From: Oligoflexia bacterium
Lineage (GTDB): Bacteria; Bdellovibrionota; UBA1018
DNA: 64,000 bases
Assembly (NCBI GenBank): GCA_963758495.1
Contig: CAVWVI010000003.1
Span: 512,001 to 576,000, forward strand
Direction of reading: 5' to 3'
Of this stretch, positions 20,533 to 52,380 are shown one piece after another; the first letter of the stretch is position 1; every line of letters starts with the position of its first letter. The translations under genes were made by a program, and so were the position numbers. Under the pieces are notes generated by a model, which had not been told where the DNA came from, did no database searches, and saw nothing but the letters and a program-made list of their open reading frames with translations.

Positions 20533-22155
20533 CTAGTGGAATATGAGCCGCACCCCAACGTGCGCGTAGCAGTTCGAAGGAACAACGTGGTCGCGAGACC
20601 CAGACCGCAGAAACCTCGCCTTATACGCAAAGGAACCGCCGCGGAGGACGCGACGCGGACCCCTATCGTAAAGATCGCTTGTCCAAGTATACACGTTCCC
20701 CCGAGCATCATAGATCCCTGCAATCGGTCGCTTCGATCTTACCTTCTGCACCTGACTTCCATCATACACTGCATAATTACCCAGCTCCCTCTCAGGAAAG
20801 GGATAAGGTCCAGCATGAATTTGTTTGTCAGCCCCAAGACGAGCCAGGTATTCCGCCTCGGCACTGCTGATCAACCTCGGGATTAACCTATTTCCGTTCA
20901 ATTTACTTTTTAGCTTTTCTACAAATGCATCCGCCTCATATGCAGTAATTCCGTTGGCGGGCAAATCCATCTCGCTTTCATCCCAGTTCTTAATCTTATA
21001 ACATCCTTGCAGCGCCGGTTTTCTACCCATGACCGCCATCCACTGACGCCGTGTAATATGCGTATCCATCGACTTAAATGAACCCACTGTCACTCTGTGT
21101 GGATACTCTTCCCAATTATATCGACCGGCTTCGCCTGCTGGTGTTCCCATATCGAACGTTCCACCGGGAAGCGCAACAGCATTGAGCCCCGCAATCCCTC
21201 CTATATTCTCGATCCTTCCTTCTACGACTCCTCCTGACGACGGTGTCTCCGCAACTACCTCCCCAGGAAGAGGAACTCGGGAAATCCCCCCAGCACTGGA
21301 ATCCAACCAATGAAACTCTTCAATCGCATTCAAGATGATATGATAACTACCCGAGGGCAACGCGGTCCTACAGAAAGGACATCTTTGATCCCTTGCAGAT
21401 CCCTCTTTTAAACATTTTTCACAAAAATCTTGGCCACAGCACGGCGTTGTCGCTGAATTGCCCGTATGCATGTTCCCATCGATAAGAACACTCTCCCCTA
21501 CAGTGCCCGGAGTCTCCAAACAAATCTTACAACTGGAGTCCATCGTCCGATAGGCAGATGCCTGATGATCCCACCGAGAATGTCCTTCCACTTCATGGGT
21601 GGTATCCAGTGCATCTCCCCAAGGAAAAAACTGATGCACTCGCGTAAGCTGATTCTTCAAGTTTGGCTGCTTAAATAAGCTCGCATTTCTACTTTCCTGA
21701 GCCAGCATTGCCGAGTCAAACTGAGGCGAATTGAGGATTCGCGCCATCACGTCTTTTCGATTATTTTGGGCCGCCAGAATAAAAGGGGTGGCCTGCCTTC
21801 CCTCATACTTAAGAGACACATCCAACTTAGCCCCCTTGTTCATGAGAAGCGCCACAATGTCGGCATTCCCTTTGGCCGCCGCCAGTCCCAACGGAAACCA
21901 CCCGTCCGAGCGCTTCTCGTTCAGATTGATCTTCGACATTTTTTCCGAATTCTCTAGAATCACCTTCGCGTGTTCGACCGTCTGTGCCTGTTCCTGCTCA
22001 GAACCTTGGCCTAGTTGGGTCAGGACAGTCATCAATTCTTCGTACTCCGGCCCCACCACTGCCTGCGCAGAAGTGCTCAATAGAAGTCCCAACACGAAGA
22101 TCCAGTTCTGGGCCCTGAAAGATTTGTGTTCGAATCGCATCAAGAAACGCGCCAT
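20533..22155 (-). CDS. Secreted ankyrin + RING-finger + FGE-sulfatase (C-type-lectin fold) protein
   Basis: Signal peptide ending AQA; PLGLAAAKGNADIVALLMNKGA ankyrin; CKIC...CCGQDFCEKC...CPFC; GGTFDMG, YDARGNVYTW and RVLRGGSF FGE motifs. Confidence 0.85.
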   Translation of the reverse strand: MARFLMRFEHKSFRAQNWIFVLGLLLSTSAQAVVGPEYEELMTVLTQLGQGSEQEQAQTVEHAKVILENSEKMSKINLNEKRSDGWFPLGLAAAKGNADIVALLMNKGAKLDVSLKYEGRQATPFILAAQNNRKDVMARILNSPQFDSAMLAQESRNASLFKQPNLKNQLTRVHQFFPWGDALDTTHEVEGHSRWDHQASAYRTMDSSCKICLETPGTVGESVLIDGNMHTGNSATTPCCGQDFCEKCLKEGSARDQRCPFCRTALPSGSYHIILNAIEEFHWLDSSAGGISRVPLPGEVVAETPSSGGVVEGRIENIGGIAGLNAVALPGGTFDMGTPAGEAGRYNWEEYPHRVTVGSFKSMDTHITRRQWMAVMGRKPALQGCYKIKNWDESEMDLPANGITAYEADAFVEKLKSKLNGNRLIPRLISSAEAEYLARLGADKQIHAGPYPFPERELGNYAVYDGSQVQKVRSKRPIAGIYDARGNVYTWTSDLYDRGPRRVLRGGSFAYKARFLRSGSRDHVVPSNCYAHVGVRLIFH

Positions 22156-31105: not shown

Positions 31106-32482
31106 TCAGTTTTGAACTAGATCCAAAATCCTCTTGAGCTCTTTCAGTCTCTCCGTTTTGGATCGATTTTTTATTCTCTCCCAGTCTCGGTAACTGATTC
31201 GTATGACCTTCCAGCCTTCATCACGAAGAATGAAATCAAGCATTTGATCTTGGGCACTCAAGATCTCCTGGCCATTTCTTAGTTGAAAGTGATGCGGACC
31301 ATCAAATTGAATAATTAACTTGGAAGAAGGTACTGCAAAATCAACGTGAGTTGCAGTACTTTCAATCCAATACTCTTCCCGCAAGTCTTGAGGATAAAAA
31401 ACTCGAATATCTTTACCGATGGCCTTCTGAGCATTAGATATTCTAACTCCTTGAGCCTTAAATCGAGAAGAGGCCTCTTCCAAGCGACGAATGATCGGAG
31501 AAGGCATAAGAATTTTGAATCTTGCAAATAAAACTCCCCTAGCTAAAGAAAGCTGATGAAGCTCTATAAGATTAAAATCCCCAATTATCTTTAGGGCCCT
31601 TTTTTTCCAGGCTTCTAAGTAATGCTCTGTAGGCTGAACACCTAAAACTGAAAATGCATAAATTGAATTAGAAAGCCCCTGAGATTTAAAATTTTCAATG
31701 AAATAAATAGCCCTATTCTGCCATACCGCTAAGAAGTGATCTTCAGGATGAATTCCTAATACTGAAAATGCATAGAGTGAGTTAGAAAGCTCCTGAGACT
31801 TAAAGCTTTCAATAGAATGGATTGCCTGCGTCTGCCAGACCTCTATGAAGTGATCTGTAGGATGAATTCCTAATCCTGAAAATGCATAGAGTGAGTTAGA
31901 AAGGCCCTGAGATGTAAAGCTTTTAATTAAATCAATCGCCTGACTCTGCCAAGCCGCTAAAAAATCATCTGTGGGATGAATTCCTAATCCTGAAAATGCA
32001 TAGAGTGAGTTAGAAAGCTCCTGAGATTTAAAGCTTTTAATTAAATGAATCGCCTGACTCTGCCAAGCCGCCAAAAAATCATCTGTGGGATGAATTCCTA
32101 ATCCTGAAAATGCATAGAGTGAGTTAGAAAGCTCCTGAGCATTAAAACTATTCATCTGACCTAAGGCAGATTTCAGCCAAGATTGAATAAAAGAATCTGG
32201 GATAGAATGAATGCGTCGAGCTTTCTTAAGCTTTGCTAAAGAATGTAAACTCATAGCTAGGTTAATTTTATTAAAACGAGGTAATAATGGAGTTACTCTG
32301 CCAAACCAGGCCTGAACGTCCTGGTCCTTCACTCTCCATGGATTTTGAGACATTTCACGAATCTCATATGACACATCACTAGGCCGTTCAATACTCCAAG
32401 CGGGTGTAAGTAAATTTAAGCCACTTCCCAGTGTAATACACAGAACCAGCAGGGAAATCATTTCCCTCATTAATTTCTTCAT
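31106..32482 (-). CDS. Secreted 38-aa-repeat (OPR-like) protein with C-terminal RAP domain, paralog A (5 core repeats)
   Basis: GGGAG RBS before ATG 32482; signal peptide ending AWS; repeats FxSQ(E/G)LSNS(L/I)YAFS..; RAP-like VD...QFDGPHHF...GWKVIRISYRDW. Confidence 0.85.
   Translation of the reverse strand: MKKLMREMISLLVLCITLGSGLNLLTPAWSIERPSDVSYEIREMSQNPWRVKDQDVQAWFGRVTPLLPRFNKINLAMSLHSLAKLKKARRIHSIPDSFIQSWLKSALGQMNSFNAQELSNSLYAFSGLGIHPTDDFLAAWQSQAIHLIKSFKSQELSNSLYAFSGLGIHPTDDFLAAWQSQAIDLIKSFTSQGLSNSLYAFSGLGIHPTDHFIEVWQTQAIHSIESFKSQELSNSLYAFSVLGIHPEDHFLAVWQNRAIYFIENFKSQGLSNSIYAFSVLGVQPTEHYLEAWKKRALKIIGDFNLIELHQLSLARGVLFARFKILMPSPIIRRLEEASSRFKAQGVRISNAQKAIGKDIRVFYPQDLREEYWIESTATHVDFAVPSSKLIIQFDGPHHFQLRNGQEILSAQDQMLDFILRDEGWKVIRISYRDWERIKNRSKTERLKELKRILDLVQN
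31577..32146 (-). repeat. 5 x 114-bp intragenic tandem repeat
   Basis: Five 38-codon units from TTT at 32146 to 31577. Confidence 0.92.
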
Positions 32483-32632
32483 ATTTTTCGATCTCCCTGA
32501 TCTTTTTCTGAGCAATACCAGTGATAATGAAATTAAAGTCTACGCGGATAACGGGAATTTAACAAAAAAATTAAATAGTCTGCGGAATCAGACAAACTTA
32601 AAAGCCTGTGTGAAAAAAACTCACAAATCCCA

Positions 32633-34243
32633 TCACACTCCGTTTTGAACTTGATCCAAAATGCTCTTGAACTCTTTCAGTCTCTCCGTTTGGGATCGAT
32701 CCTTTATTCTCTCCCAGTCTCGGTAACTGATTCGTATGACCTTCCAGCCTTCATCACGAAGAATGAAATCAAGCATTTGATCTTGGGCACTCAAGATCTC
32801 CTGGCCATTTCTTAGTTGGAAGTGATGCGGACCGTCAAATTGAATAATTAACTTGGAAGAAGGTACTGCAAAATCAACATAGCTCGCAATAGCGTCACTC
32901 CAATACTCTTCTCGCAAGTCCTGAGGATAAAGAACTCGAATATCGTTACCAACGGCCTTCTGAGTTTTGGATATTGTGACTCCTTGGGCCTTAAACCTAG
33001 AAGAAGCCTCCTCCAAGCGACGAATGATCGGAAAAGGCATAAGAATTTTGAATCTTGCAAATAAAACTCTCCTAGCTAAAGAAAGCTGATGAAGCTCTGC
33101 AAGATTAAAATCTCCAATTATCTTTAGAGCGCTTTTCTTCCAGGCTTCTAAGTAATGCTCTGTAGGCTGAACACCTAAAACTGAAAATGCATAAATTGAA
33201 TTAGAAAGCTCCTGAGATGTAAAGCTTTCAATAGAATGGATTGCCTGCGTCTGCCAGACCTCTAGGAAGTGATCTTTAGGATGAGTGCCTAAAACTGAAA
33301 ATGCATAGAGTGAATTAGAAAGGCCCTGAGACTTAAAGCTTTCAATAGAATGGATTGCCTGCGTCTGCCAGACCTCTATGAAGTGATCTGTAGGATGAAT
33401 TCCTAATCCTGAAAATGCATAGAGTGAGTTAGAAAGCTCCTGAGAGTTAAAGCTTTTAATTAAATCAATCGCCTGACTCTGCCAAGCCGCTAAAAAATCA
33501 TCTGTGGGATGAATTCCTAATCCTGAAAATGCATAGAGGGAGTTAGAAAGCTCCTGAGAGTTAAAGCTTTTAAATAAATGAATCACCTGACTCTGCCAAG
33601 CCGCTAAAAAATCATCTGTGGGATGAATTCCTAATCCTGAAAATGCATAAATTGAATTAGAAAGCTCCTGAGATGTAAAGCTTTTAATGGAATGAATTGC
33701 CTGACTCTGCCAAGCCGCTAAAAAGTCATCTGCCGGCTGAATTTTTAATACTGAAAATGCATAAAGTGAGTTAGAAAGTCCCTGAGATGTAAAGCTTTTA
33801 ATGGAACGAATTGCCTGCGTCTGCCAGACCTCTAGGAAGTGATTTGTGGGATGAATTCCTAATCCTGAAAATGCATAAATTGAGTTAGAAAGCTCCTGAG
33901 AGTTAAAGCTATTGATTTGACTTAAGGCAGATTCCAGCCAAGATTGTATAAAAGAATCTGAGATGAAATGAATGCGTCTAGCTTTCTTAAGCTTTGCTAA
34001 AGAATGTAAACTCATAGCTAGATTCATTTTACTAAAACGAGGTAATAATGGCGTTGCTCTGCCAAACCAGGCCTGAACGTCCTGGTCCTTCACTCTCCCT
34101 GGATTTTGAGACATTTCGCGAATCTCGTGTGCCAAATTATTAGGCCGTTCAATGCTCCAAGCGGGTGTAAGTAAATTTAAGCTACTTCCCAGTATAATAC
34201 ACAGAACCAGCAGGGAAATCATTCCCCTCACTAATTTTTTCAT
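32633..34243 (-). CDS. Secreted OPR-like/RAP protein, paralog B (7 core repeats)
   Basis: Tandem duplicate of paralog A, including ~80 bp of upstream sequence; two more 38-aa units. Confidence 0.85.
   Translation of the reverse strand: MKKLVRGMISLLVLCIILGSSLNLLTPAWSIERPNNLAHEIREMSQNPGRVKDQDVQAWFGRATPLLPRFSKMNLAMSLHSLAKLKKARRIHFISDSFIQSWLESALSQINSFNSQELSNSIYAFSGLGIHPTNHFLEVWQTQAIRSIKSFTSQGLSNSLYAFSVLKIQPADDFLAAWQSQAIHSIKSFTSQELSNSIYAFSGLGIHPTDDFLAAWQSQVIHLFKSFNSQELSNSLYAFSGLGIHPTDDFLAAWQSQAIDLIKSFNSQELSNSLYAFSGLGIHPTDHFIEVWQTQAIHSIESFKSQGLSNSLYAFSVLGTHPKDHFLEVWQTQAIHSIESFTSQELSNSIYAFSVLGVQPTEHYLEAWKKSALKIIGDFNLAELHQLSLARRVLFARFKILMPFPIIRRLEEASSRFKAQGVTISKTQKAVGNDIRVLYPQDLREEYWSDAIASYVDFAVPSSKLIIQFDGPHHFQLRNGQEILSAQDQMLDFILRDEGWKVIRISYRDWERIKDRSQTERLKEFKSILDQVQNGV
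33110..33907 (-). repeat. 7 x 114-bp intragenic tandem repeat
   Basis: Seven 38-codon units from TTT at 33907 to 33110. Confidence 0.92.
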
Positions 34244-34355
34244 CTTTTTTGATCCCTCTGATCTTTTTCTGAGCAATACCAGTGATAATGAAATTAAAGT
34301 CTACGTAGATAGGAGAAATTTAGCAAATAATTGCTGAATAATATGCGAAGTTAAG

Positions 34356-34366
34356 ATTCCGACCTA
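34356..34366 (+). repeat. Putative att core, distal copy (ATTCCGACCTA)
   Basis: Identical to 52370-52380. Confidence 0.6.
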
Positions 34367-34397
34367 TTGCTCTGTTCGCGGACGTCTAGATTGAAAC
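34366..34397 (+). repeat. Inverted degenerate CRISPR repeat
   Basis: ATTGCTCTGTTCGCGGACGTCTAGATTGAAAC matches GTCGCGCCCCTCGCGGGCGCGTGGATTGAAAC at 22/32, in the orientation opposite to the array. Confidence 0.65.
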
Positions 34398-34420
34398 AGT
34401 CCTAACTCTTTACTGAGAAT

Positions 34421-36320
34421 ATTTCAATCCACAGGCCCGCGAAGGGCGCGACCATGCAATTCAATTCGCGAAGCTGATATTAAAAAGTTTCAATCCACGC
34501 GCCCGTGAGGGGCGCGACCAGTCAGAGTAATAGACATCCACTTTTTTCATCGTTTCAATCCACGCGCCCGCGAGGGGCGCGACTTGCTTTAAAACATAGG
34601 CGTCAAGCTGATCAAATGTTTCAATCCACGCGCCCGCGAGGGGCGCGACCCGCTTGCATCAACCGCTTTTTCTCATTTTGAGGTTTCAATCCACGCGCCC
34701 GCGAGGGGCGCGACTCGATATTACTGATGGACATAGGATACATACAATGTTTCAATCCACGCGCCCGCGAGGGGCGCGACGTGTTCCTTCGGATCTTTGG
34801 GCGGGAGAAGCTGACGTTTCAATCCACGCGCCCGCGAGGGGCGCGACAGAGACGATGGCCGCATAGTGAGTTTTGATAATGGTTTCAATCCACGCGCCCG
34901 CGAGGGGCGCGACTCACTAACTCGGACGGGATACATTAACCATAAAGTTTCAATCCACGCGCCCGCGAGGGGCGCGACTTAGCGATGGTGAGCTAGGTGG
35001 ATATATTGAAAAAGTTTCAATCCACGCGCCCGCGAGGGGCGCGACCCGATCAACCCGATCAACTCGCCAATGCTATAAAGTTTCAATCCACGCGCCCGCG
35101 AGGGGCGCGACGTTACGGCGGGAATACTTCAGCTTCGATTGCATGGTTTCAATCCACGCGCCCGCGAGGGGCGCGACGTAGAACAACTGTTACCGGCGGA
35201 TTTTCAAGAGAGTTTCAATCCACGCGCCCGCGAGGGGCGCGACTTTCAGCACTCCTAGACTATTAACTAACTGACTAGTTTCAATCCACGCGCCCGCGAG
35301 GGGCGCGACAGATATAAAACCACGCATGAGCTTCGTAATAAGTGTTTCAATCCACGCGCCCGCGAGGGGCGCGACTCAATCATCTTGGGCAGCTTACGTT
35401 TCGTGAAAGTTTCAATCCACGCGCCCGCGAGGGGCGCGACTTGCCTAGTGACTTAACCCCTCCCCATACTTTAGGTTTCAATCCACGCGCCCGCGAGGGG
35501 CGCGACAGTTGCATAAAAATACGTCATACTGATCCTCGGTGTTTCAATCCACGCGCCCGCGAGGGGCGCGACTTAATTCCTTGGTCTGCCAAAGATTTAA
35601 GCTCAGGTTTCAATCCACGCGCCCGCGAGGGGCGCGACATCGAGTGCAGAACTCATTCAAGCAACCGCTCGAAAGTTTCAATCCACGCGCCCGCGAGGGG
35701 CGCGACCTTCGGGAGGAAATTTACAGGTCAGCGATATCATGTTTCAATCCACGCGCCCGCGAGGGGCGCGACCTCAAGCCGGAAGAGATATAGAAGCAGC
35801 TTGCTAGTTTCAATCCACGCGCCCGCGAGGGGCGCGACGTTTGGGATTTAACTTGCCTAAACTTAGTATCATTGTTTCAATCCACGCGCCCGCGAGGGGC
35901 GCGACCGGTGGAGATGGCGCAGGAGATGTCACCTACGTATGAGTTTCAATCCACGCGCCCGCGAGGGGCGCGACAGGACATCCCGCGTTTTATCTTGTGC
36001 CGCATTCCTGTTTCAATCCACGCGCCCGCGAGGGGCGCGACCGCCGACCATTATCAATGCTTGCGACTTCCGATGACATGTTTCAATCCACGCGCCCCGC
36101 GAGGGGCGCGACCTGAGCGGCGTCAGCGTTATCGTGAGTTAATCATTGCAGTTTCAATCCACGCGCCCCGCGAGGGGCGCGACCCATCGTGATTTACATA
36201 ATGAGCGTTGTAGATCCCAATGTTTCAATCCACGCGCCCGCGAGGGGCGCGACGAAATGAAGTACTGGTGTATGGGCAATTCATGATAGTTTCAATCCAC
36301 GCGCCCGCGAGGGGCGCGAC
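34421..36320 (-). CRISPR. Type I-C CRISPR array, 29 repeats / 28 spacers (33-38 nt)
   Basis: Repeat GTCGCGCCCCTCGCGGGCGCGTGGATTGAAAC on the minus strand. Degenerate terminal repeat at 34421-34452, a 1-nt variant at 34487, and two 33-nt variants at 36080 and 36151. Leader lies toward cas2. Confidence 0.98.
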
Positions 36321-36490
36321 TCCTTAATGCTAAGATCATAAAATAACACAAAATTTCAAAGACCCATCGCTAATCGCGACTTCTATTTCAATAAAAAACA
36401 AAAAAGAACGACCACCGACGTATAAACTATTGAAATCATTAAAGCGCTAATCACTGGCACTAATGATGTCTCATTGAGGTTAGCGAAAAA
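36321..36490 (-). promoter_or_regulatory. CRISPR leader
   Basis: AT-rich 170 bp between the cas2 stop and the first canonical repeat; the degenerate repeat is at the opposite end. Confidence 0.8.
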
Positions 36491-36781
36491 TTATAAAATT
36501 AACGTGTCCTGGAAATCTGTTGCTTTCTTGGTACCGAAATGCTCTACTTTTGACTTCCAATTGCTTCCAAGATAGTAAAAACGCAAACTGTCTTTTTCTA
36601 CGTCATATTCTTTGAGTAACCTTGATTTTAACATTTCCCATTGGGTTGGGTCCACTTCACATTCAAATACAGAACATTGAACCCTCTGACCGAAATCTTG
36701 ACATGCTCTAGCTATTCGCCTCAATCTGCGACTCCCTGCCAAGTTTTTTGTTTCTACATCATAAGTAATTAACATTAGCAT
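36491..36781 (-). CDS. cas2: CRISPR-associated Cas2
   Basis: ITYDV, GQRVQCSVFEC and DSLRFY motifs; 96 aa. Confidence 0.96.
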   Translation of the reverse strand: MLMLITYDVETKNLAGSRRLRRIARACQDFGQRVQCSVFECEVDPTQWEMLKSRLLKEYDVEKDSLRFYYLGSNWKSKVEHFGTKKATDFQDTLIL

Positions 36782-36786
36782 AGGTA

Positions 36787-37818
36787 TTATTTAGATAAAA
36801 ATGCTGGATAATGATTTAAGTCGCCACGAATCGTCCGCGCTAACAGTAGAGCTTGCAAATGAATAACAATACCGATTGGTGCCTTTTCTCCGAGAAAAGG
36901 GTGGATTAATTCTTCCTTTTTTTTCTCTTGCCAAGCAACTAAAATTTCTCTTCTGACTTTATCATCAATTTGTACCGCACCCGTTTCAGAAATTTTAAAT
37001 CCTTCGGAACCAACCTGTTTAAGATTAATCAAACTCAGAACGAGACGATCTCCCAAGACTGCCCGAAATTCCTCCACCAAATCCAGCGCTAAACTAGGTC
37101 GACCTGGGCGGTCTCGATGCAGGAACCCTGCCTGAGGATCTAATCCAACCCCTTCAAGAGCCGAACGACAATCATGAGTAATTAAAGAATATACAAAAGA
37201 AAGCATAGCATTCAGTCTATCTAACGGTGGGCGACGACTACGAGTCTTAAACAAAAAATCTTCCTTTTGGCAGGTAATTAAATTGTTAAAACACGAAAAA
37301 TATTCGTCGGCTGCAGCCCCCTCTATTCCTCGTAATCGATCCAAATCAAATTCCATACCAGACTGCTCCTGCATTCGCCCCATTCGAAGCACAGTGCCCT
37401 TTAAAAGCTCCTTTGAATCACATTCAGAGTAATTTCTTAGATGCCTTTGTAATACCGATCGACTATTAGCAATTTTCGCAGCGACTATTGCTTTTGCAAT
37501 TAAAACAGACCGTTCCGTTAAATCAGATATTCGATATTGTTCCTTACGAAGGAGTATATTTCCAGAAACGGGTCCTTCTACTCGGGCTAAGAATTTACCA
37601 AATTCTGAAAAAAAACTGATCGATACACCACGTTCAGCACAAAAAGCCATCGCATATGGAGAAATCCATATAGGCCCAAATACCATCAACCCCTGAAACA
37701 TGTGAATTGGGAACTGTCCGAGTTTTTTTTCACCGGCCTCTACCACCAAAGTTTCATTTTCCTTACGTACACGTGAATTTTCAGTAGTGATATAGAGAAT
37801 ATTCAACAATTTCTTCAT
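36787..37818 (-). CDS. cas1: Type I-C Cas1
   Basis: MKKLLN.LY, GNILLR, LRGIEG, RRPPLD, GLDP..GFLH and DLVEEFR motifs. Confidence 0.97.
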   Translation of the reverse strand: MKKLLNILYITTENSRVRKENETLVVEAGEKKLGQFPIHMFQGLMVFGPIWISPYAMAFCAERGVSISFFSEFGKFLARVEGPVSGNILLRKEQYRISDLTERSVLIAKAIVAAKIANSRSVLQRHLRNYSECDSKELLKGTVLRMGRMQEQSGMEFDLDRLRGIEGAAADEYFSCFNNLITCQKEDFLFKTRSRRPPLDRLNAMLSFVYSLITHDCRSALEGVGLDPQAGFLHRDRPGRPSLALDLVEEFRAVLGDRLVLSLINLKQVGSEGFKISETGAVQIDDKVRREILVAWQEKKKEELIHPFLGEKAPIGIVIHLQALLLARTIRGDLNHYPAFLSK

Positions 37819-38474
37819 AAATCACCCGGTTTAAAAAGACTTTTAAAATAATGATCTGCTCTATTACTATCAGAATTAGGTTGACATAAATCCATCAAAG
37901 AACAATTGCGACATTTCTTTTCAAAAATTGGCAATGGGGTTCTCCCTGAATGAATCAGTTCATGTACATATTTTGCTACTGTTGCTGTCTCAGTGCGGAT
38001 AGCGTCATTCATCTGTACCCATTCACGACGATTTGGCTGGGCATAATAGAGAGCACCCTTAGAAATGGTAAGACCAAACATTTCTTCAAGACAGATTACT
38101 TGTGCACAAAGTTGAATTCTGTCTATATTAGTGCTTTTTTTTTGACCTCGCTTATATTCGATCGGACATGGTTGCCAAAGCCCCTCTCTTCCAGACAATG
38201 AAACTCCCTGTTGCGATCGAAAAAATTCAACAACATCGGCAATTCCACTTAAACCTAAACTATTTGATCTAATCCTCAAGCTCCGTGCAATAAATAGGTC
38301 TTTCCTTTGTTCAGATTGACCAGTATCTACCTTTTCGTGTAAAAGTTTACCTTGAGTCGTTAGAATATTTTCCGCCCAAACTTGCTCAATGTGAATCAAA
38401 GCACATTGCCTCTCACAAAAGGCGTAATGCTGAAGGGCTGAAATAGGTATAAAATCAACTTCAAAATAATTCAC
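37815..38474 (-). CDS. cas4: Cas4
   Basis: ISALQHYAFCERQ, DVVE, PIEYKRG, QLCAQ and CxxCSLxxxC motifs. Confidence 0.96.
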   Translation of the reverse strand: MNYFEVDFIPISALQHYAFCERQCALIHIEQVWAENILTTQGKLLHEKVDTGQSEQRKDLFIARSLRIRSNSLGLSGIADVVEFFRSQQGVSLSGREGLWQPCPIEYKRGQKKSTNIDRIQLCAQVICLEEMFGLTISKGALYYAQPNRREWVQMNDAIRTETATVAKYVHELIHSGRTPLPIFEKKCRNCSLMDLCQPNSDSNRADHYFKSLFKPGDL

Positions 38475-38506
38475 ATCAGAGATGTTCTAAACAATGGAGT
38501 TAGATG

Positions 38507-39364
38507 TTAATAGCCATTAATCTCTTCAGGAATTAAACCGTCAATCTGATCTATTCTATAAGTACCATCTGTATCCACTTTCAGGCTTCCGTGCACTTTA
38601 GACGAGGCACATTTCCCTTCTTTAGAGGAATGCCTCCACCAAATAACTTTAAGTACTTCCATACTGCCTTCTGGGCGGGCAGAAGAGGCGTCATTTTCAA
38701 ATAACTTCGGAAGGATATTTTTTATGACTTCAGCATCTGTATCGCTGAAACCAGTTCGCACGGCAAGTTGCGGATTCATGCTTCCGTAGGTGAGATAGAC
38801 TCCATAATCAACTCGATGTTTCATACCCATAGTATCAGAAGCACGCTTAGATCCATCACCCTCGCCATTTACACTTTTGGTAATCTGAGTGCTGCTTGTG
38901 CTAATTGGTTCAAGGCTAAATGCGGATTGTATCGTTACGGGGCCACGAATTCCAATAGAGACTCCAGTATCTCCCTCAAAATTGGTTTCTTCTTCACTTT
39001 TATTAATTTTTTTTTCATTTTTTTTGAAGGCGAGCAATTGACCAAATGTTCGAACATCCAACCAATTTTCACATGCTAATTTTGCTGTCTCTATTGAACT
39101 TAATTTTCTTCCAAGTTTTTCTTCTACTCTTTGGCGAATACTTTTACAATCATCAACCTTGCGATCATCAGATTGAACTAAAATAGAATGTCCATTTTCA
39201 AGTAATCGATCACGAATTTTGCGTTTGAGGCACACATCGGTTATCTCACCGAATCCTTCGTAGTTCGTACGAGGACGATTACCATTTAAAGGGTCACCAT
39301 TGGGATTTGCGTTTTTTACTCTAAGAATAATCGCAAAATCAATTTTATTTTGTAACGAACCCAT
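38507..39364 (-). CDS. cas7: Type I-C Cas7/Csd2
   Basis: NANPNGDP, DVCLKRKIRD, DVRTFG and FENDASSARP motifs. Confidence 0.96.
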   Translation of the reverse strand: MGSLQNKIDFAIILRVKNANPNGDPLNGNRPRTNYEGFGEITDVCLKRKIRDRLLENGHSILVQSDDRKVDDCKSIRQRVEEKLGRKLSSIETAKLACENWLDVRTFGQLLAFKKNEKKINKSEEETNFEGDTGVSIGIRGPVTIQSAFSLEPISTSSTQITKSVNGEGDGSKRASDTMGMKHRVDYGVYLTYGSMNPQLAVRTGFSDTDAEVIKNILPKLFENDASSARPEGSMEVLKVIWWRHSSKEGKCASSKVHGSLKVDTDGTYRIDQIDGLIPEEINGY

Positions 39365-39765
39365 TATTGCTCTCCTTTTGTGTTTTCAGTCTGTAAGTCG
39401 GATTTTTTTCTGTTCAGGTCCTGTCGTTGACAGTGATATCCTAGAAGAAATTCACCATTCAAGCGGACATCGCTTTGATACTCATTTAATTGAAAGAGAC
39501 AGGTGACCTCAGTCAGAAGATTTTTCATTACCTGTAAAAAAGGAGCCCTCTTTGCTTTGAGTCTGGCTTGGTAGGGTACCAAGGAAGTTTCTATATTCTT
39601 CCAAGTTGAAAAAGGACGATCAGCAAATCGCTGCATCAACTTGAATGCAGTAGTGTCACGGCTCTCACCTCCTACATGGAGAGCCCTTTCCTCAAGATGA
39701 TCAGCAATAGCAAGTAGTCGCCCATAGAGGTAGTCTCGGCTTGTTCGATCTGGTTCAAGGGCCAT
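39364..39765 (-). CDS. cas11c: Cas11c small subunit translated in-frame within cas8c (133 aa)
   Basis: AAAAGGAGTTATCAA-ATG at 39765, giving MALEPDRTSRDYLYGRLLA; this is the internal-start position established for type I-C. Confidence 0.8.
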   Translation of the reverse strand: MALEPDRTSRDYLYGRLLAIADHLEERALHVGGESRDTTAFKLMQRFADRPFSTWKNIETSLVPYQARLKAKRAPFLQVMKNLLTEVTCLFQLNEYQSDVRLNGEFLLGYHCQRQDLNRKKSDLQTENTKGEQ

Positions 39766-41289
39766 TTGATAACTCCTTTTTTCTTTAGAATTGCGTTCAT
39801 AATAACCTTTGAAAAGTGCGCAAGCAATGCCAAGAGTTTGTTCCCATTCTCTAGGATCTTTTATTCCTACGCGATTACAAGCCCTTCGGAAGACAGACTC
39901 AACCAGATCACGTGGAATTGGGGCTGAATCTAAAATACAAGGCAAAATCCGTTGAATTGTATGTTTTTTTAATTTGTCATCAATACGTTTCGAGAAACAT
40001 GCCTCTGCAATACTACTTGGACTTGGAGCGAAAATTTGCCATAGAATACCTGTTTTCCCTTTTGCTTTCGGATCCAGGAGATGCCAGGAAAAATCAGAGT
40101 GCCAATTTTCGATCCGTCGAAGAAATTCCGAGCTTTGCAATTCCCGGTAATAAACGATAGCTATTCTACCATCACTTGCTGAATCAAGACCTATCACTAC
40201 GATATCCTGAAGCTCTCCTAGTTTCGCCTTATATCCAGCTATCTTCTTATTCAGTTTTAATGCGAAGGTTTGGCCAAAATCAGATTCATTTTTTGAATCG
40301 CTATCCAGTGATTCTCCAAAAAGAATGGAAGTATCAGCAAAGGGATCTGGGATATCTTGGCCACCAGTCGCCCATGAAACAAACACAAGATTCCCGAATC
40401 GCTGGGACTGGCGTTTAATAAGCCACTGAAGCGCATTGTGGATTTTTTGGGAGGCTTCGCTAGACATGCCTACAGCTTGGCTGGCAACACTAAATCTGCC
40501 TCTAAATGTATAGCCCGTACTATCATTAGAAGAGATAAGTTTAGCTCCATCACCACTATGCCGAATTCGACCGGGGTGTTTTGTCGCCAATACTCCCACA
40601 TTCCCAGTTACAAAGCATAAACCCTTCTCGACACACTCAAGCGTTGAGTTATATAGAGTCCAAGCGTCGAACAATGACGGATCTTCCCAGGTAGTAGAGT
40701 TTGGATTTCCTGGTTCCTCTACTCTCCATCTAACAAATGCATCCCCTTGATCCATAGAGGTGGGAAGGACGCTGAAAATTTCATTCTTAAAGACCGCTGG
40801 CTTTTCGCTTTTTGGATTCCACATACAAGCGAGGGTAGCAGGTGAGTCCGTATGAAGAACATTGCAGCCGATTAAGTCAGCTACAACCGTTCCCTTGCTA
40901 ATATATTTAAAAACAGCATTTACTTTGGGGTGATTCGCAACTGGCGAAGACGCCCAGGCTTGTAACTGCTTTGAATATGAGTCGAAGTAAGAATCCTTCC
41001 TTCCACCAAAAGTCTTGTAGTCCTTCGCTATGTATTGAATTTTATCAGAAAGAGGATATGGTGCGTCATTAGCAGTTCGAGTCGCAGACTTTTCTGTGGT
41101 TGGAATAATCGTCTCTATCTTGAGAATGACTTTAGCAGTGTTAAAATTGCCATCTAGATCAATAACAATCTCAATATGAGCATTCTGCAACTTATGGGCG
41201 ACAGGTACTAATATGTTCTTTCCTGTGCTTGTATGAGTAGTATTTGAAACTAAATTGAAGGTTTCATATAATTTTTGGCTCCAACTCAT
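39364..41289 (-). CDS. cas8c: Type I-C Cas8c/Csd1
   Basis: MSW.QKLYETF, AKLISSND, SQKIHNALQWL, YLYGRLLA and FLLGY motifs. Confidence 0.95.
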   Translation of the reverse strand: MSWSQKLYETFNLVSNTTHTSTGKNILVPVAHKLQNAHIEIVIDLDGNFNTAKVILKIETIIPTTEKSATRTANDAPYPLSDKIQYIAKDYKTFGGRKDSYFDSYSKQLQAWASSPVANHPKVNAVFKYISKGTVVADLIGCNVLHTDSPATLACMWNPKSEKPAVFKNEIFSVLPTSMDQGDAFVRWRVEEPGNPNSTTWEDPSLFDAWTLYNSTLECVEKGLCFVTGNVGVLATKHPGRIRHSGDGAKLISSNDSTGYTFRGRFSVASQAVGMSSEASQKIHNALQWLIKRQSQRFGNLVFVSWATGGQDIPDPFADTSILFGESLDSDSKNESDFGQTFALKLNKKIAGYKAKLGELQDIVVIGLDSASDGRIAIVYYRELQSSEFLRRIENWHSDFSWHLLDPKAKGKTGILWQIFAPSPSSIAEACFSKRIDDKLKKHTIQRILPCILDSAPIPRDLVESVFRRACNRVGIKDPREWEQTLGIACALFKGYYERNSKEKRSYQMALEPDRTSRDYLYGRLLAIADHLEERALHVGGESRDTTAFKLMQRFADRPFSTWKNIETSLVPYQARLKAKRAPFLQVMKNLLTEVTCLFQLNEYQSDVRLNGEFLLGYHCQRQDLNRKKSDLQTENTKGEQ

Positions 41290-41996
41290 TCAACCACTCC
41301 GTCGTCAGAGGTGATTGAAAAATTACATCCAATTTCAAACTTTTTCGGCATCATCTCGCGTACCAGGTGACGAACTTTACACACTTCAGGACGATCAAAT
41401 TGAATAATCCCACTCTTCATCACAGGAGAGAAAAGGCGCTTATAGAGCTTATTTTCTCCGTTTTCATCAGGATAATCAAAACCGTGAAACATCAGACCAA
41501 ACCCGAGTTCATCCAAATCATCGTAATCACTCTTGCCGGTACCAAATTCACAAGGCTCCACATAAGCCTGACAGTCTCTTGTCCCCAGGTAAACGTCCAG
41601 GCTTCCACCTTTATCAAGCTTTCTTAAGGCAATCTGGTAGTGCTTACCATCGTTGCGATCTTTCTCCAATTCTGAACGAAAGAGATTCCATTCGAAGTGG
41701 GCTTGAACTTGGTATTCAACATCCGCCAAGAATGTATAAATAGATAACGAATTTCCCCCTCCATAGTTCAAAGGTTTAGTCCCTTTCGTTTGGGTTCGAA
41801 TTTTCTTCATCACGCGAACCTTATCAATGACCCAAATAAAAGTGGGTTTCCAATAGATAGATTTGGCTATGCCTTTTAAAGCTTCATAAGTAGGAATGTG
41901 GTAAGAGCACTTCTCTCCCCCAATTTTTGTCAAAGGATCTGTAAAAAGAGCATGAGGACCCCAAACTTTGAATTCAATACAATTTTTCGGTTTCAT
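41286..41996 (-). CDS. cas5c: Type I-C Cas5c/Cas5d
   Basis: ALFTDP, SYHIPTYEAL, IYWKP and YLGTRDC motifs. Confidence 0.96.
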   Translation of the reverse strand: MKPKNCIEFKVWGPHALFTDPLTKIGGEKCSYHIPTYEALKGIAKSIYWKPTFIWVIDKVRVMKKIRTQTKGTKPLNYGGGNSLSIYTFLADVEYQVQAHFEWNLFRSELEKDRNDGKHYQIALRKLDKGGSLDVYLGTRDCQAYVEPCEFGTGKSDYDDLDELGFGLMFHGFDYPDENGENKLYKRLFSPVMKSGIIQFDRPEVCKVRHLVREMMPKKFEIGCNFSITSDDGVVE

Positions 41997-42016
41997 AGGG
42001 TATTCCAAAGTCTACT

Positions 42017-44500
42017 TTAACAATTTATAAAACTCATTGAGTTGACCATTTCGAGACTAATGCCGAAATCATCACTATAGTACTGTTTATCCAAGTAATA
42101 GATACCTGTGCTTTTTTGAATTTCCTGCATAGCACCCTCCTGAGAAAATTTCAAAATTAAATTTGGATACAGATTTACAGTATAGCGCTGAGCTTTTCTA
42201 AGAAGCTCAAATTGTTTTTCTACTTGAAAGGCACCGCATAGTTCAGTTACAAGGGCTTCGCCTTCTTTGCCATACGGTACAATAACTCCTTGTGTGGAGA
42301 TATCCATGGCTTTGAATTCCTTTCCCGCAGACATGAAGGAATGTCTTAAAAAGATCGCAGGCGCACAGTCCTTTGTTCTCTTATGTTCTGAAACAGAAAT
42401 CGAATTTTCTCCCAATAAATTCAAGAGTCGATCGGAACGTCCGATATAACCTGAACTTTGATCTCCAATTGGGTAATCCATCTCTCCTCTTCGATCAAAA
42501 AAATTATACTGATAGTATCGTTGCATTGCACTTGGACTAAGAAGACTATTACCTAGTAGAGATGGGCTGCTCTCAAATTCACGTAAGATGCGATCAGTAT
42601 GCTTTTGTCCTGTAGAGATATCTTCAAGCGATTTAATATTCTCTTGAGCGGCGTTTACTACATAAACTCTGCCCACTTTTATTCGACCGTTTCGGTTACA
42701 GCGCCCAGCAGCTTGGGCTATGGAATCCAATCCTGCGCTACAGCGAATCACAGAATTAAAATCTAAATCCACCCCTGCTTCAATCAATTGTGTACTAATA
42801 CATAACACTGGATCTCCCCTTTCCAGCATTGCACGAATCTGATTCAGAATAACCAACCGGTGAGCTGGGCACATCGCTGTACTGAGATGAAAGACAGGAA
42901 ACATCGAAGGCGCTTTGCAGAGCTGAAAAAGGGCTTGCGCCATCTGTTTTGTATTTACAATGACAAGGCAACTATTCGCCTGGGAAATCTGATCCAAGGC
43001 CAATTTCGCAATTTCTTCATTGGTCCAACCTATAGACCTAGTGTAATTAAGAACTTCCACCCGTTTGAGGTCATCAAAAAGACTCCGGACATCTGACATT
43101 ATTTCGTTGCGATCGTCATATTTCATCATCCCTTTTGTGGGTTCAACTTGATTTAGAAGTGGTTGCGTCGCGGTACATAGTACAACCGTGCTCCCACATT
43201 GCTCCACGAGAAAATTCACGGCATTGTTAAACAAATGAATGCAGCGAATGGGCAGAGTCTGAATTTCATCAAAGATAATCAACGAATTGGCCAATTGATG
43301 TAGGCGTCGAGCCCCACGGGTACCACCACTAAATAGAGACTCGAGCAATTGAACGCTCGTGGTATAAATCACTGGAGCATCCCAGTTTTCAGTGAGGATC
43401 TTGGCCTTCCAGGTCTGCTCTTCGGGAGTCAGATTAGAATGATGTTCCAAAACAATCAAACTAGGTTCAACGTTGTCGGATGTTGGGTCCAAAATGTTAC
43501 GAACAGTTTCGGCATTTTGATCAATGATAGTGGTAAAAGGTATAACAAAAATGATGCGGTCAAGATGATGTTTTTTTGCGTGATGCAAGCCAAAGCGGAG
43601 GCTAGCAAGGGTTTTCCCTCCACCTGTAGGAACAGTCAGAGTAAAAATCCCTTTGCCCCTTTGAGCACTTTCGAAACAACCCTGTGAGATTTTTCGCCGA
43701 ATTTCATCAATTCTGTTTTGAATCGGAATATTCTCCAAATATTTTTCAAGTCGTTCAATCAAGAGATCCCACTGGGGATATGAGCCATTGTAGCACCTAA
43801 GTGCAGCCTTCGGATTTTCGAAGTCTGCACTATCAATTCGATCCCCGTCAATAAGACAACTGAAGAGAAAACGAACTAACAGACCTTCCTGAATTGCGCG
43901 GGTTTGGCGAGACTGGTTGTATTTTTGAATAGATGCAATGACCTTTTTTAAGGGAATTAATAAGTCTTCAGAGTCCAAAATACGCTGAACCTCTCGAAAT
44001 ATTTCTGGATCGGCTTTTTCAGTGACTTCTATTAAGTGCGTTTTTTTATCATCTTTCTGAATTCTGCGTTCCCAATTATTCTCTCCACTAGGCTTCAGAC
44101 AGTCAATAAGCCCAGAATGATGTGAGACAATACAGAGAGTGAGTATTTGCTCCAAAAATTTCTCGGCAGGGGTGTCTTTCCCCTTGAACTGCTGCCGTAT
44201 ATACTGAGCCCCAGCAGTGGAATGATCAATCTTGCCCTTCAGTCCTGAGGCATCAACATATTCCTCATCCTCATCAGGATTGAGTAAACCAACCGCAGAT
44301 TGGATATATGATTGGAATTCTTGACTGAATTTTCCAAGATCATGTAACAATCCAACCAGTGCGCCATAGTCGCCAAGGCCTATCTTGGCCCCGAATATCC
44401 GACTTTTTGCACTCACTCCTTGTAGGTGGCTAATGACAGATTGATTTGTCCCATCCTTGCGTGCATGCGCAATATAATTATCTTGGTTAGTCTTACTCAC
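42017..44500 (-). CDS. cas3: Cas3 HD nuclease-helicase
   Basis: LHDLGK, DHS, SHH, DGD, PTGGGKT, DEIQ, TAT, TQLIEAGVD and QAAGRCNR motifs. Confidence 0.96.
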   Translation of the reverse strand: MSKTNQDNYIAHARKDGTNQSVISHLQGVSAKSRIFGAKIGLGDYGALVGLLHDLGKFSQEFQSYIQSAVGLLNPDEDEEYVDASGLKGKIDHSTAGAQYIRQQFKGKDTPAEKFLEQILTLCIVSHHSGLIDCLKPSGENNWERRIQKDDKKTHLIEVTEKADPEIFREVQRILDSEDLLIPLKKVIASIQKYNQSRQTRAIQEGLLVRFLFSCLIDGDRIDSADFENPKAALRCYNGSYPQWDLLIERLEKYLENIPIQNRIDEIRRKISQGCFESAQRGKGIFTLTVPTGGGKTLASLRFGLHHAKKHHLDRIIFVIPFTTIIDQNAETVRNILDPTSDNVEPSLIVLEHHSNLTPEEQTWKAKILTENWDAPVIYTTSVQLLESLFSGGTRGARRLHQLANSLIIFDEIQTLPIRCIHLFNNAVNFLVEQCGSTVVLCTATQPLLNQVEPTKGMMKYDDRNEIMSDVRSLFDDLKRVEVLNYTRSIGWTNEEIAKLALDQISQANSCLVIVNTKQMAQALFQLCKAPSMFPVFHLSTAMCPAHRLVILNQIRAMLERGDPVLCISTQLIEAGVDLDFNSVIRCSAGLDSIAQAAGRCNRNGRIKVGRVYVVNAAQENIKSLEDISTGQKHTDRILREFESSPSLLGNSLLSPSAMQRYYQYNFFDRRGEMDYPIGDQSSGYIGRSDRLLNLLGENSISVSEHKRTKDCAPAIFLRHSFMSAGKEFKAMDISTQGVIVPYGKEGEALVTELCGAFQVEKQFELLRKAQRYTVNLYPNLILKFSQEGAMQEIQKSTGIYYLDKQYYSDDFGISLEMVNSMSFINC

Positions 44501-45101
44501 AGTAATTTACCCTCTCTTTTCAGTGATTTCAGAAGTGTCGCCATTACAATCAATGAGTCTGCCTTGTACTCTAATAACCTAATGACATAGCCGAAAAGCC
44601 GTTTCCGGCGATATGGGCCGTATCTGAGTAGATGAAGTTATTATTTTCTAGTGCTAGTCCGGCGATTACTGTCATATTGCTATCCTTATTCCAAGAATCA
44701 GGAAGATCCTGCATACAACAGTAGCGCTGATGCTCAAAACAAAAATATCTAAAGAAAGTTATCCGGAATATATGGTTTTCCAAAAATCCAGATCTCATAT
44801 TTTCCGGAAAGAAGTGCCATTACTGCGCAAGTGACTTGTCCGCGATCAGGATCGGTTGGCCATTATTCCTATGTGGGGTCAGGCATGATCGAAACTAGTA
44901 ACTCGGTTTTGCAAAGTCAGATCTAGTTTCTTACATTTTAAATTTCAACGTTTGATTGGCATTACCAGGACATGGCGCAAGAATTAATGGATCAAGGCGC
45001 CAGCAAATCGTTTTAACTTTAGACTTTTTTCTTGGGTGTTTGATGATTTTTTAGGAATGAAAAGGCAATACTCCTTTGCATAGAAGAGGCCAAAACGGTG
45101 A

Positions 45102-45197
45102 ACAATCCAACACATGCTCATGATCAGCCTGCCGATAAGGCTGGAACTTAGGGCATAGGTAACAAAAAAAGGGGGATCCAAATGACAGAGTGATTTT
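45102..45197 (-). pseudogene. 96-bp relic of the ginB-like recombinase gene
   Basis: Direct repeat of 49490-49586 with about 4 substitutions and a 1-nt deletion. Confidence 0.85.
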
Positions 45198-45276
45198 ATC
45201 TTTTACGCATTCACCTGGAGCTTTAAAAGTAAAAAAGGGCTCTCAAATCTTTACGATGATAAAATAACAAATAGCC

Positions 45277-45306
45277 AAAAAAAAGGAGCCTTAAAAGGCT
45301 CCTTTT
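45277..45306 (-). terminator. Rho-independent terminator (possibly bidirectional)
   Basis: A8-GGAGCC-TTAAAA-GGCTCC-T4. Confidence 0.8.
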
Positions 45307-45727
45307 AATAAATAATACTTTACAAATCTTTATGATTTTCAATTATTGCATGTCAAAATGGTAGTTTATATAAAACAAACAAAAACTATTCTTAAGTATC
45401 GATAACTATTTGAAATAATATGTAATTTTAGTACATCTGTAAAATCTTTGTCTAAAAAATGGTAAGAAACTATGCCTCCTAAGAAGAATAGCCACTTTCA
45501 GTTGAATGATTTTCTCATTCAGTTTGTAAAGTTTGTGATTAACACTTTTAAACGCGCCGGATTGGTCCCTAACTTCACTCAGTTTGGCAACTTAGGAGCG
45601 ACTGACCGTGTTACCGTTGAGAAATCCCGAAAATATACAGCCAGATGTCTCTGTCGTTGCAAAGCCAGGTCGACAATACAATATCCTACCCCAAGCGAGA
45701 GGTCTGCCACCTCTCACACTCTCTGGC

Positions 45728-45758
45728 CCCATGTGCTGTTAAGCACATGGGCTTTTTT
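45728..45758 (+). terminator. Rho-independent terminator on the plus strand
   Basis: CCCATGTGCT-GTTA-AGCACATGGG-C-TTTTTT. Confidence 0.7.
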
Positions 45759-45765
45759 AAAAGCC

Positions 45766-46443
45766 CTATCCCTTCATAGCATCTAAATTGTCTTCAATGC
45801 TCTTGTCTGGCCTTGTCCGTAAGTAGAGATTTCCAGATCTTGAATGCGCAATCACTGCGTCCACTCTTCCTTGACGAGTCAGTGCAATACCCTGAATTTT
45901 TGAAATCCATCCCATCGTTTCAATCTGATAGGAAACGATCGTTTTCTTTTTGTTTCTTTGAACCCCAATAATTTTAAGTTTATCCGTGCATTCTTCGATT
46001 ACGCCCTTTTGCTGGCCCTCCATTTGTTCAATGGCCTTCCAGAGCATTTCAAATTCATTAGGACTGAAATCTTTGATTTTTTTGTCTCCCTTGACTCCAA
46101 TCTTCCCACGTAAAAATCGCACGTAATTCTCTGGATCATTACCATCTTCTTTTGGAGCATACACTTTTATCAATGCTTTAAGATCTTTCGTTCCATGCTC
46201 ATTTTTCAAGCAATCAAGATGTGCCTGATGGCCCGTTTTATAATCTGGGAATACCGCAAATCCCCCTGCTTTCCCAATAGCACCATTTCTTTTACTGACT
46301 TTCCCTACAACAAGATTGCCAGGATTATTATTTCTCCAGGTCCAATTGCCTTTTGAAAAACAAAACTTCCTGCCATCTTCAGATTCGTAAATTACAGAGT
46401 GCCTAGGTCCAGGACCTGCTTTAACAAATTTGGGTTCACTCAT
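45766..46443 (-). CDS. Lysozyme-like (RNNNPGN) domain plus C-terminal DUF3892-like domain
   Basis: WRNNNPGNL...GFAVFP...YAP..DGNDPENY; C-terminal YLRTRPD....NLD. Confidence 0.7.
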   Translation of the reverse strand: MSEPKFVKAGPGPRHSVIYESEDGRKFCFSKGNWTWRNNNPGNLVVGKVSKRNGAIGKAGGFAVFPDYKTGHQAHLDCLKNEHGTKDLKALIKVYAPKEDGNDPENYVRFLRGKIGVKGDKKIKDFSPNEFEMLWKAIEQMEGQQKGVIEECTDKLKIIGVQRNKKKTIVSYQIETMGWISKIQGIALTRQGRVDAVIAHSRSGNLYLRTRPDKSIEDNLDAMKG

Positions 46444-46883: not shown

Positions 46884-46895
46884 ACAAGAACTGCC

Positions 46896-52152: not shown

Positions 52153-52257
52153 GTTGTAAGTCCTTTACAAAATGAATTAACTCTCAATTACTAAATTTAC
52201 AATTTAATTTTTATCCGTATTAGTAGATTACTTATTATTCTCTTAGCTTGAAAAATG

Positions 52258-52293
52258 AAAAAAAGCCTTTTGAATCTTTACAATCCAAAAGGC
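52258..52293 (-). terminator. Terminator downstream of ssb, inside the island end
   Basis: GCCTTTTG...CAAAAGGC stem followed by T7 on the minus strand. Confidence 0.7.
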
Positions 52294-52369
52294 CTTCTTA
52301 ATAACTTATTTTCTTATTTTTCAGTAGGTTAGCAAAAACAGCGTTGTCCTTGCTTTACAAAACCACTTT

Positions 52370-52380
52370 ATTCCGACCTA
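52370..52380 (+). repeat. Putative att core, ssb-proximal copy (ATTCCGACCTA)
   Basis: Overlaps the ssb TAG; identical to 34356-34366. Confidence 0.6.

Follow-up and report, generated by a model that had tools for sequence, protein, structure and literature searches.

What does a bacterium do with two adjacent genes for signal-bearing helical repeat proteins that end in a RAP domain, and at which target are these proteins directed? This question is raised by a locus of an Oligoflexia bacterium (assembly GCA_963758495.1), which we analyzed within a stretch of 64,000 nucleotides (the window; positions 512,001 to 576,000 of contig CAVWVI010000003.1). Both genes lie on the reverse strand. Gene B (32633..34243) codes for a signal peptide, a helical N-cap, seven OPR-type repeats, a linker, and a RAP/Vsr-like domain, and gene A (31106..32482) for a signal peptide, an N-cap, five OPR-type repeats, and a RAP domain. 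The open reading frames (ORFs) extend over 32633-34276 and 31106-32515, which corresponds to 547 and 469 residues if counted from the TTG codons at 34276 and 32515, and ATG codons at 34243 and 32482 are the likely starts. This layout had already been proposed in a first-pass annotation, and the frames, Tandem Repeats Finder (TRF), and Pfam agree with it. Tblastn, phmmer, and a 20-sequence profile detected these two copies as the sole ones in the genome, on a 1.68-Mb contig of a 5-contig assembly. The N-terminal parts of A and B are 91% identical with a ratio of non-synonymous to synonymous substitutions (dN/dS) of 0.46, the C-terminal parts 92% with a dN/dS of 0.35, and no two of the 12 repeats are the same, so that an assembly artifact is ruled out and the duplication is real and selected. 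It includes upstream DNA, as the annotation had also stated: the region 34244..34331 before B (reverse strand) has its copy at about 32483-32570 before A, with 29 identical nucleotides preceding the TTG and weaker similarity up to about 55 nt. This shared DNA contains a GAGG that resembles a ribosome-binding site and a weak sigma70-like pair (8/12), which was under the threshold of the promoter scan and is therefore absent from its list. In short, the pair encodes real, selected, signal-bearing OPR-RAP proteins and not TALEs, and the reading that we prefer, with roughly even confidence, is that of RNA-targeting factors of the NCL/FASTK type that are exported via Sec as effectors toward a eukaryote, where they would bind, and probably cut, host RNA.

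In register, there are five repeats in A (31577..32146) and seven in B (33110..33907; both reverse strand), each exactly 38 residues or 114 bp long, which agrees with the 38-40 residues expected of OPR-RAP proteins, and TRF reported 114-bp arrays at 31626-32154 and 33159-33910. At the DNA level, the 12 repeats are 66-98% identical. Only the 10 internal repeats (75-98%) deserve their earlier description as near-identical, because the terminal repeats A5 and B7, which are 95% alike, share only 66-75% with the remaining ones. Twelve of the 38 positions are invariant, including P20 and W28, and within positions 1-14 variation is seen only at position 2 (N/K/T), position 5 (E/G), position 10 (L/I), and once at position 3. 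Codons 2 and 5 are the only ones that distinguish repeats A3 and B5, both codons are also different between A5 and B7, and nearly all of the changes at the two codons are non-synonymous. If the residues at positions 2 and 5 are written together, array A reads NE KE TG KE KG and array B reads NE TG TE NE NE KG TE. Leave-one-out codon counts in six registers placed position 2 first or tied first in 6/6 registers and position 5 among the top four in 6/6. The modular variation is real and concentrated at repeat positions 2 and 5, a pattern that the first-pass annotation had not noticed and that we add here.

The same two positions stand out in the relatives. Of 214 homologues, 208 were examined; the six left out are both window proteins, a duplicate of gene A, and three near-duplicates. 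Among the 208, 25 contain near-identical arrays, defined as at least four repeats at 55% or more periodic identity. In these 25 arrays, position 5 is on average the most variable one, differing in 0.79 of the repeat pairs, followed by position 2 (0.60) and the next position (0.49), and neighboring positions differ in 0.06-0.23 of the pairs. In 21 of the arrays, position 5 ranks within the top three, in 15 of them first or tied first, and a motif-anchored recount of 21 arrays gave 0.73 for position 5 and 0.64 for position 2. The residues found at position 5 form a small alphabet (E, N, D, G, H, A). This variability within an otherwise fixed helix is a signature like that of the repeat-variable diresidue (RVD) of TALEs, and it overturns the reading that the recognition helix is invariant and no code is possible. 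Work on Chlamydomonas suggests that the main OPR determinant is the residue between Q and L, which is position 5 here. In the literature, one OPR position is anticipated as the main determinant, and the three positions upstream contribute (PMC13126933). Our literature searches, which covered listings and passages, found no description of the variability at positions 2 and 5. The motif F-x-x-Q-x-L-x-N fits that of Paulinella, and PPPEW, which together with LWALA counts among the OPR consensus words, is absent from the window repeats; OPR proteins without PPPEW exist (PMC8635915).

The C-terminal domain covers 32684..32875 in B and 31139..31342 in A (both reverse strand). The RAP family PF08373 scored above its cut-off in both proteins (44.0 and 41.3 bits vs 24.2), FAST_1 passed its cut-off in B only, and a DUF559 match was just short of it (E 0.0006-0.001). 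Among the candidate residues D468, D481, G482, and H485 of B (numbering from TTG), all of which are kept in A, D468, G482, and H485 form the only invariant columns of a 20-protein alignment (20/20). Vsr uses an Asp51-His69 pair, and the inactive FASTKD4 has an Asn at the position of the Vsr His (PMC11879112). Judged by motif position, D468 and H485 would correspond to this Vsr pair, which makes an active nuclease plausible. A nuclease function has been argued for RAP (PMC5449608), and FASTKD5 cleaves RNA using a different key Asp (PMC12242768).

An AlphaFold2 model based on a 9-row alignment (pLDDT 89.4, pTM 0.79) consists of a signal helix, three cap helices, a helix pair for each repeat, linker helices, and an alpha/beta domain, and the predicted repeats, each with two antiparallel helices, form a continuous helix-hairpin alpha-solenoid. 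With Foldseek and VIA-align, the best matches were to repeat proteins that bind RNA in organelles: chain 7pkt_O of the Chlamydomonas mitoribosome (Z 24.3, root-mean-square deviation (rmsd) 8.5, 399 aligned), the trypanosome RESC6 (Z 24.1, rmsd 4.6, 389 aligned), and the FAST-RAP part of human FASTKD4 (Z 19.8, rmsd 3.2, 270 aligned). Mitoribosomal repeat proteins of Chlamydomonas, Polytomella, Toxoplasma, and Tetrahymena are included in the top ranks. The predicted fold agrees with that of OPR/HPR-RAP proteins, and together with the Pfam result it upholds the annotated OPR-type solenoid with a RAP end.

As to the place of action, hydropathy predicts Sec signal peptides at 34154..34243 in B (30 residues, probable cleavage after A-W-S) and at 32393..32482 in A (both reverse strand). 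Our call is based on the shape of the sequences (basic n-region, 10-residue mean hydropathy of 2.9 and 3.5, A-x-S ending), on a low-confidence stretch of the model at residues 29-41, and on conservation in two close homologues, G107 and P0004. The genome offers further indications. It has 15 RING matches, the highest number among the 75 genomes of the family, of which 9 have any and which compare with 0/14 controls, and its 65 Ank_2 matches are also the highest number in the family. An N-terminal hydrophobic stretch is found in 13/15 RING ORFs and 28/32 ankyrin ORFs vs 881/1956 long ORFs. The genome G107 ranks second for ankyrins (33) and third for RINGs (8), and it has the most F-box-like matches (5). 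Since RING ligases depend on a ubiquitin system, a eukaryotic partner is the simplest reading. The annotation had suggested exported effectors against host or prey, and the signal-bearing RING/ankyrin repertoire favors export and a eukaryotic target rather than a bacterial one. For the kinase gene next to the pair, the best relatives belong to Bdellovibrionota, among them FG-1, FG-2, and UBA1018, which have been placed in the family UBA1018 and described as likely predators with a Kil system (PMC13200544). The richness in signal-bearing RING, ankyrin, and OPR-RAP proteins thus suggests a eukaryote-associated life in a family described as bacterial predators, and a literature statement to this effect for UBA1018 was not found, which is a weak negative given the limited coverage of the library.

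Across the genome, no fewer than 15 ORFs contain RING fingers and about 30 contain ankyrins, and there are also repeat proteins of the HEAT-like and RCC1-like kinds and a single weak F-box; most of these have signal-like N-termini, and examples are C3:157162-158322, C1:146136-148730, C4:226948-228537, and 20533-22155 of the window. The latter is a fusion of signal, ankyrin, RING, and FGE-sulfatase parts, and its paralog lies at C2:113049. G107, G108, G028, G086, and genus g9 carry similar loads, which suggests a eukaryote-associated sub-lineage of UBA1018. Three further ORFs (C5:48602-51268, C5:41446-44103, C4:501677-502552) have a signal peptide followed by a basic, acid-free, presequence-like stretch, two of them with an R-x-F/Y-S motif, and a bipartite targeting for export plus mitochondrion is possible from these sequences; the scan was crude, and 16/757 ORFs passed its composition filter. 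The genome has a single FHIPEP gene, presumably the flagellar FlhA. Searches for U-box, PPR_2, and TLC gave no match anywhere, controls included, and are uninformative.

In the mechanism that we propose, both proteins would be exported by Sec toward a eukaryotic cell, in all likelihood that of a protist serving as host or prey, the signal peptide would be removed, and a type II secretion system, of which the genome has a gspD/E/F/G-like cluster (C4:359504-365681), would be an available route out of the periplasm. The 38-residue repeats may form a solenoid that binds single-stranded RNA with one repeat per base, positions 5 and 2 of each repeat may be the specificity residues, and the Vsr-like RAP domain may cut or block this RNA. 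The arrays would change in length and specificity through duplication in tandem, through unequal crossover of their 114-bp units, and through point changes at the two positions 2 and 5. A number of observations weigh against this mechanism. In the window repeats, position 34 shows about as much variability as position 5, positions 2 and 5 are located at the helix start, where capping alone favors N/T/D and E/D, the 25 arrays are partly kin, and since position 5 is only E or G in the window, the target would be short (5-7 nt) and of low complexity. In mitoribosome structures, no OPR code was recognizable, and some OPR repeats make no RNA contact (PMC8998825). The repeat region is acidic (isoelectric point (pI) 5.5-5.6), unlike the basic grooves of many RNA-binding solenoids, the Polytomella ATP-synthase subunit ASA2 matches the model equally well (Z 23.9), and FASTKD4 is not a nuclease (PMC11879112). 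No organelle presequence follows the signal peptide, as the next 40 residues hold 5 basic and 5-6 acidic ones. The gene is present in 0/4 further ankyrin/RING-rich relatives, and the genome retains a Tad/Kil-like locus that is typical of predators of bacteria. Neither VirB4 nor a type VI secretion sheath was found in this 92%-complete genome, and no nucleotide translocase was found either, with a TLC search that was blank in the controls as well.

The acidic repeats and the ASA2 match, together with designed armadillo proteins among the fold matches, would fit a different kind of exported effector, in which the solenoid binds a host protein in the manner of ankyrin or armadillo repeats, the RAP domain serves as a cap or clamps RNA without catalysis, and the differences at positions 2 and 5 adjust helix capping or an interface with a protein. 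DNA-conserved repeats are widespread among the exported proteins of this genome, and the conservation of the repeats alone is therefore not special to the pair; the ankyrin and HEAT-like proteins show the same turnover, and a protein-binding role would also be compatible with the lack of nuclease activity in FASTKD4. We nevertheless consider this role unlikely: the Asp/His pair is invariant in 20/20 aligned homologues, the same repeat position is hypervariable in bacterial and eukaryotic arrays, and most of the top fold matches are RNA-associated.

Predatory Bdellovibrionota use other nucleases to feed on nucleic acid or to silence prey, and the pair could likewise be released into prey bacteria or the environment. 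A variable recognition array is of no benefit to a bulk nuclease, however, and the gene occurs in just 1/74 family genomes, alongside RING/F-box proteins, which depend on the ubiquitin system of a eukaryote, and its named close relatives come from intracellular bacteria. Even with the retained predator-type Tad/Kil-like and type IV pilus loci, the description of the family as likely predatory (PMC13200544), and signal-bearing RAP proteins in other Bdellovibrionota (G043, G197, G308), we regard a prey-directed nuclease as quite unlikely.

A literal TALEN analogue would read double-stranded DNA with its repeats and nick host or organelle DNA with its Vsr-like domain. The folds of Vsr, DUF559, and I-Bth0305I are those of DNA endonucleases (3hrl is among the matches), the variable positions are RVD-like, and the N-cap is basic (pI 10.4-10.5), yet the lysine-arginine patch is absent from the two close homologues G107 and P0004, in vitro binding of an HPR relative was to RNA but not to DNA (PMC6212722), and no TALE, mTERF, or other DNA-bound chain was among the fold matches listed, which does not amount to an exclusion; we judge DNA targeting to be very unlikely. 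Horizontally acquired genes that drift in a variable slot, with variation as a by-product of slippage or gene conversion and no retargeting, might be expected from the patchy distribution at three chromosomal locations in three lineages and from a judgement that is based on only 12 repeats, but we judge them very unlikely in view of two intact frames, a flank dN/dS of 0.35-0.46, 12/38 invariant repeat positions, nearly all non-synonymous changes at codons 2 and 5, and a third-position GC content (0.33 and 0.36) within the range of the genome (median 0.36).

Where does such a pair come from? A word-based search gave 67 related proteins and a full scan 3436. Closest to the pair, and alike in signal peptide and cap, are P0004 (with 4 repeats and 44-53% identity) and the gene of G107, which is present in two contig-end pieces (62% and 61% identity); the chromosomal locus of the gene is a different one in each of the three lineages. 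RAP was found in 1/74 other family genomes (G107 only), in 5/116 order genomes, and in 22/401 phylum genomes, 11 of them above the cut-off. Named organisms among 30 matches that were looked up are Orientia tsutsugamushi, Ca. Bealeia, and Ca. Tisiphia, as well as a Holosporales, a Bdellovibrionia, and a Pseudomonadota bacterium. In a quick RAP tree of 118 columns, from which the direction of transfer is not readable, the window pair falls into a 28-row group (SH-aLRT 93) with Orientia, Tisiphia, Holosporales, and other Bdellovibrionota, and Bealeia lies outside this group. The OPR-RAP architecture is not new in bacteria, as OPR or OPR-RAP proteins have been noted for Orientia and SKWP effectors (PMC7729196), Coxiella (PMC8635915), Rickettsiella (PMC13667924), and a few prokaryotes (PMC8190603), and the Bealeia, Tisiphia, and Holosporales proteins are found in databases. 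The view that the architecture or the DNA-level conservation of its repeats is unique to this bacterium is thus not supported: Orientia A_04 has a mean repeat identity of 93%, and near-identical arrays are also found in Tisiphia, Bealeia, Holosporales, and eukaryotes. In our searches of literature listings and passages, no experimental test of a bacterial OPR-RAP protein was found.

Four other Bdellovibrionota proteins, L002 (G043), L013 (G308), L014 (G197), and L012 (G198), are helical with signal-like N-termini, degenerate repeats, and a RAP end. In the tree, the G308 protein is sister to P0006, whose repeats are near-identical, and this sisterhood despite unlike repeats suggests that homogenized arrays may arise and decay repeatedly. 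One DNA sequencing run (5% share) yielded a single 170-nt contig identical to 33261-33430, which is perhaps not independent and is too short to judge repeat number or habitat. The sequencing-run listing showed no RNA run containing the pair, and a scan of assembled genome contigs with gene B as query gave no match.

Our analysis adds to the published cases a RING/ankyrin-rich host of the UBA1018 type, the variability at positions 5 and 2, and a CRISPR that lies in a separate island. A bolder reading, which we find rather doubtful, is that a sub-lineage of the 'predatory' Bdellovibrionota has switched to eukaryotic hosts with the help of Sec-exported, reprogrammable OPR-RAP RNA endonucleases with a two-position base code, as one branch of a family common to intracellular bacteria. 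If this were true, the proteins would be an RNA counterpart of the TAL effectors, and near-identical bacterial arrays would yield the OPR code directly. For an OPR code, only a thesis is cited (PMC13126933). The TALE and PPR codes were read from arrays in which nearly all differences between repeats are confined to two positions. The window arrays are small, bacterial, and predicted to fold well, and hence are a candidate for a clean model in which the OPR code becomes testable, and if the RAP domain cuts, they would be part of a natural modular RNA nuclease. It is the combination of the two-position variability with the eukaryote-directed secretome of the host lineage that makes the pair of interest.

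The pair adjoins a type I-C CRISPR-Cas system that we do not consider a partner. In 8 relatives' loci among those listed, and in L057, ssb is directly followed by GT2, and none of these loci shows the insert; here the ssb-GT2 interval is 21 kb long and holds an integrative element, the type I-C cas operon, a CRISPR array, and then the pair. An 11-bp direct repeat at 34356..34366 (reverse strand), the candidate right end, matches the ssb stop region (52370-52380) and delimits an integrative island at the ssb 3' end (34356-52380). The repeat has only two copies in the genome; a second copy is expected by chance somewhere in the genome, and within this interval with a chance of about 1 in 200. 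It brackets the integrases and the CRISPR but not the pair, which makes the CRISPR a neighbor rather than a partner; the 28 spacers have no match beyond 18 nt in the genome, and the homologues of the pair lie at other loci. An anti-phage role was also rejected, as PADLOC gave no match of note, as was plasmid or viral carriage, for which the searches gave no match. The island itself contains a four-gene recombinase block (46896-52152), three genes of which have integrase-family matches and which we take to be SE/GInt-like, a DUF3892 gene pair, and a full type I-C CRISPR-Cas with 29 repeats. An inverted, degenerate partial CRISPR repeat (34376-34398) is located 21 nt past the last repeat of the array, is 83% complementary, and might form a foldback with the terminal repeat when transcribed. 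Two CRISPR repeats with one extra C (36080-36184) flank 38-nt spacers, the other spacers being 33-37 nt long. A duplicate of about 96 bp from the 3' part of the second recombinase gene (45102-45197 and 49490-49586) resembles a relic of an earlier element.

Among known systems, the closest counterpart is the RAP-domain 'repeat-containing protein A_04' of Orientia tsutsugamushi (BAG40345.1; OtRAP type, PMC7729196), which likewise has near-identical 38-residue repeats, with RAP at the C-terminus, and a variable position 5 (string E G G N N). The identity is 35% over residues 122-528, and the Orientia protein falls into the same RAP-tree clade. It belongs to a different phylum and has no signal-like N-terminus, whereas the window pair has a signal, its own N-cap, and tandem copies. 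Database relatives of the Orientia type are Ca. Bealeia paramacronuclearis, Ca. Tisiphia, Holosporales, and Ca. Rickettsiella. Chlamydomonas NCL/NCC, Arabidopsis RAP, and Paulinella OPR proteins are alike in 38-residue helix-hairpin repeats, RAP, and tandem paralogs, and in ncc1/ncc2 single residue changes retarget RNA destabilization (PMC8635915, PMC13126933). These proteins are nucleus-encoded and organelle-targeted, and their repeats are usually degenerate; the window pair is bacterial with a Sec-type signal and lacks a transit peptide and PPPEW. A transit peptide is likewise absent from the published bacterial OPR proteins. FASTK/FASTKD1-5, RESC6, and mitoribosomal HPR-RAP proteins share the solenoid and RAP fold (Z 19.8-24.3) and the FAST_1 match, but HPR repeats are degenerate and 37 residues long (PMC6212722), compared with 38 residues (114 bp) here. 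FASTKD4 lacks the Vsr His (PMC11879112) where the window pair keeps Asp/His, and FASTKD5 cleaves RNA via an Asp outside the RAP-type logic (PMC12242768). The SKWP effectors (RipS, XopAD, Mlr6331/6361) have related solenoid repeats in secreted bacterial proteins and have been proposed to recognize host RNA; they differ by 42-residue repeats in about 20 copies, type III secretion, and an RdRP-like domain where the pair has RAP (PMC13667924). The XopAD hidden Markov model match was weak (26.9 bits vs a cut-off of 2000; family score 19-27 bits).

By analogy, the window pair resembles TAL effectors in near-identical tandem repeats of variable number that vary at one or two positions, and TALENs in a C-terminal, here putative, nuclease module. 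TAL effectors have repeats of 33-35 residues with the RVD at 12-13, a DNA target, type III secretion, and an activation domain, and TALENs carry an engineered FokI. The window repeats have 38 residues with invariant positions 11-14 and variable positions 2 and 5, the pair has a Sec-type signal instead of type III secretion, and no homology to TAL effectors was seen. The TALE/TALEN label originally attached to the locus thus fails on repeat length, variable-residue position, secretion route, and nuclease type.

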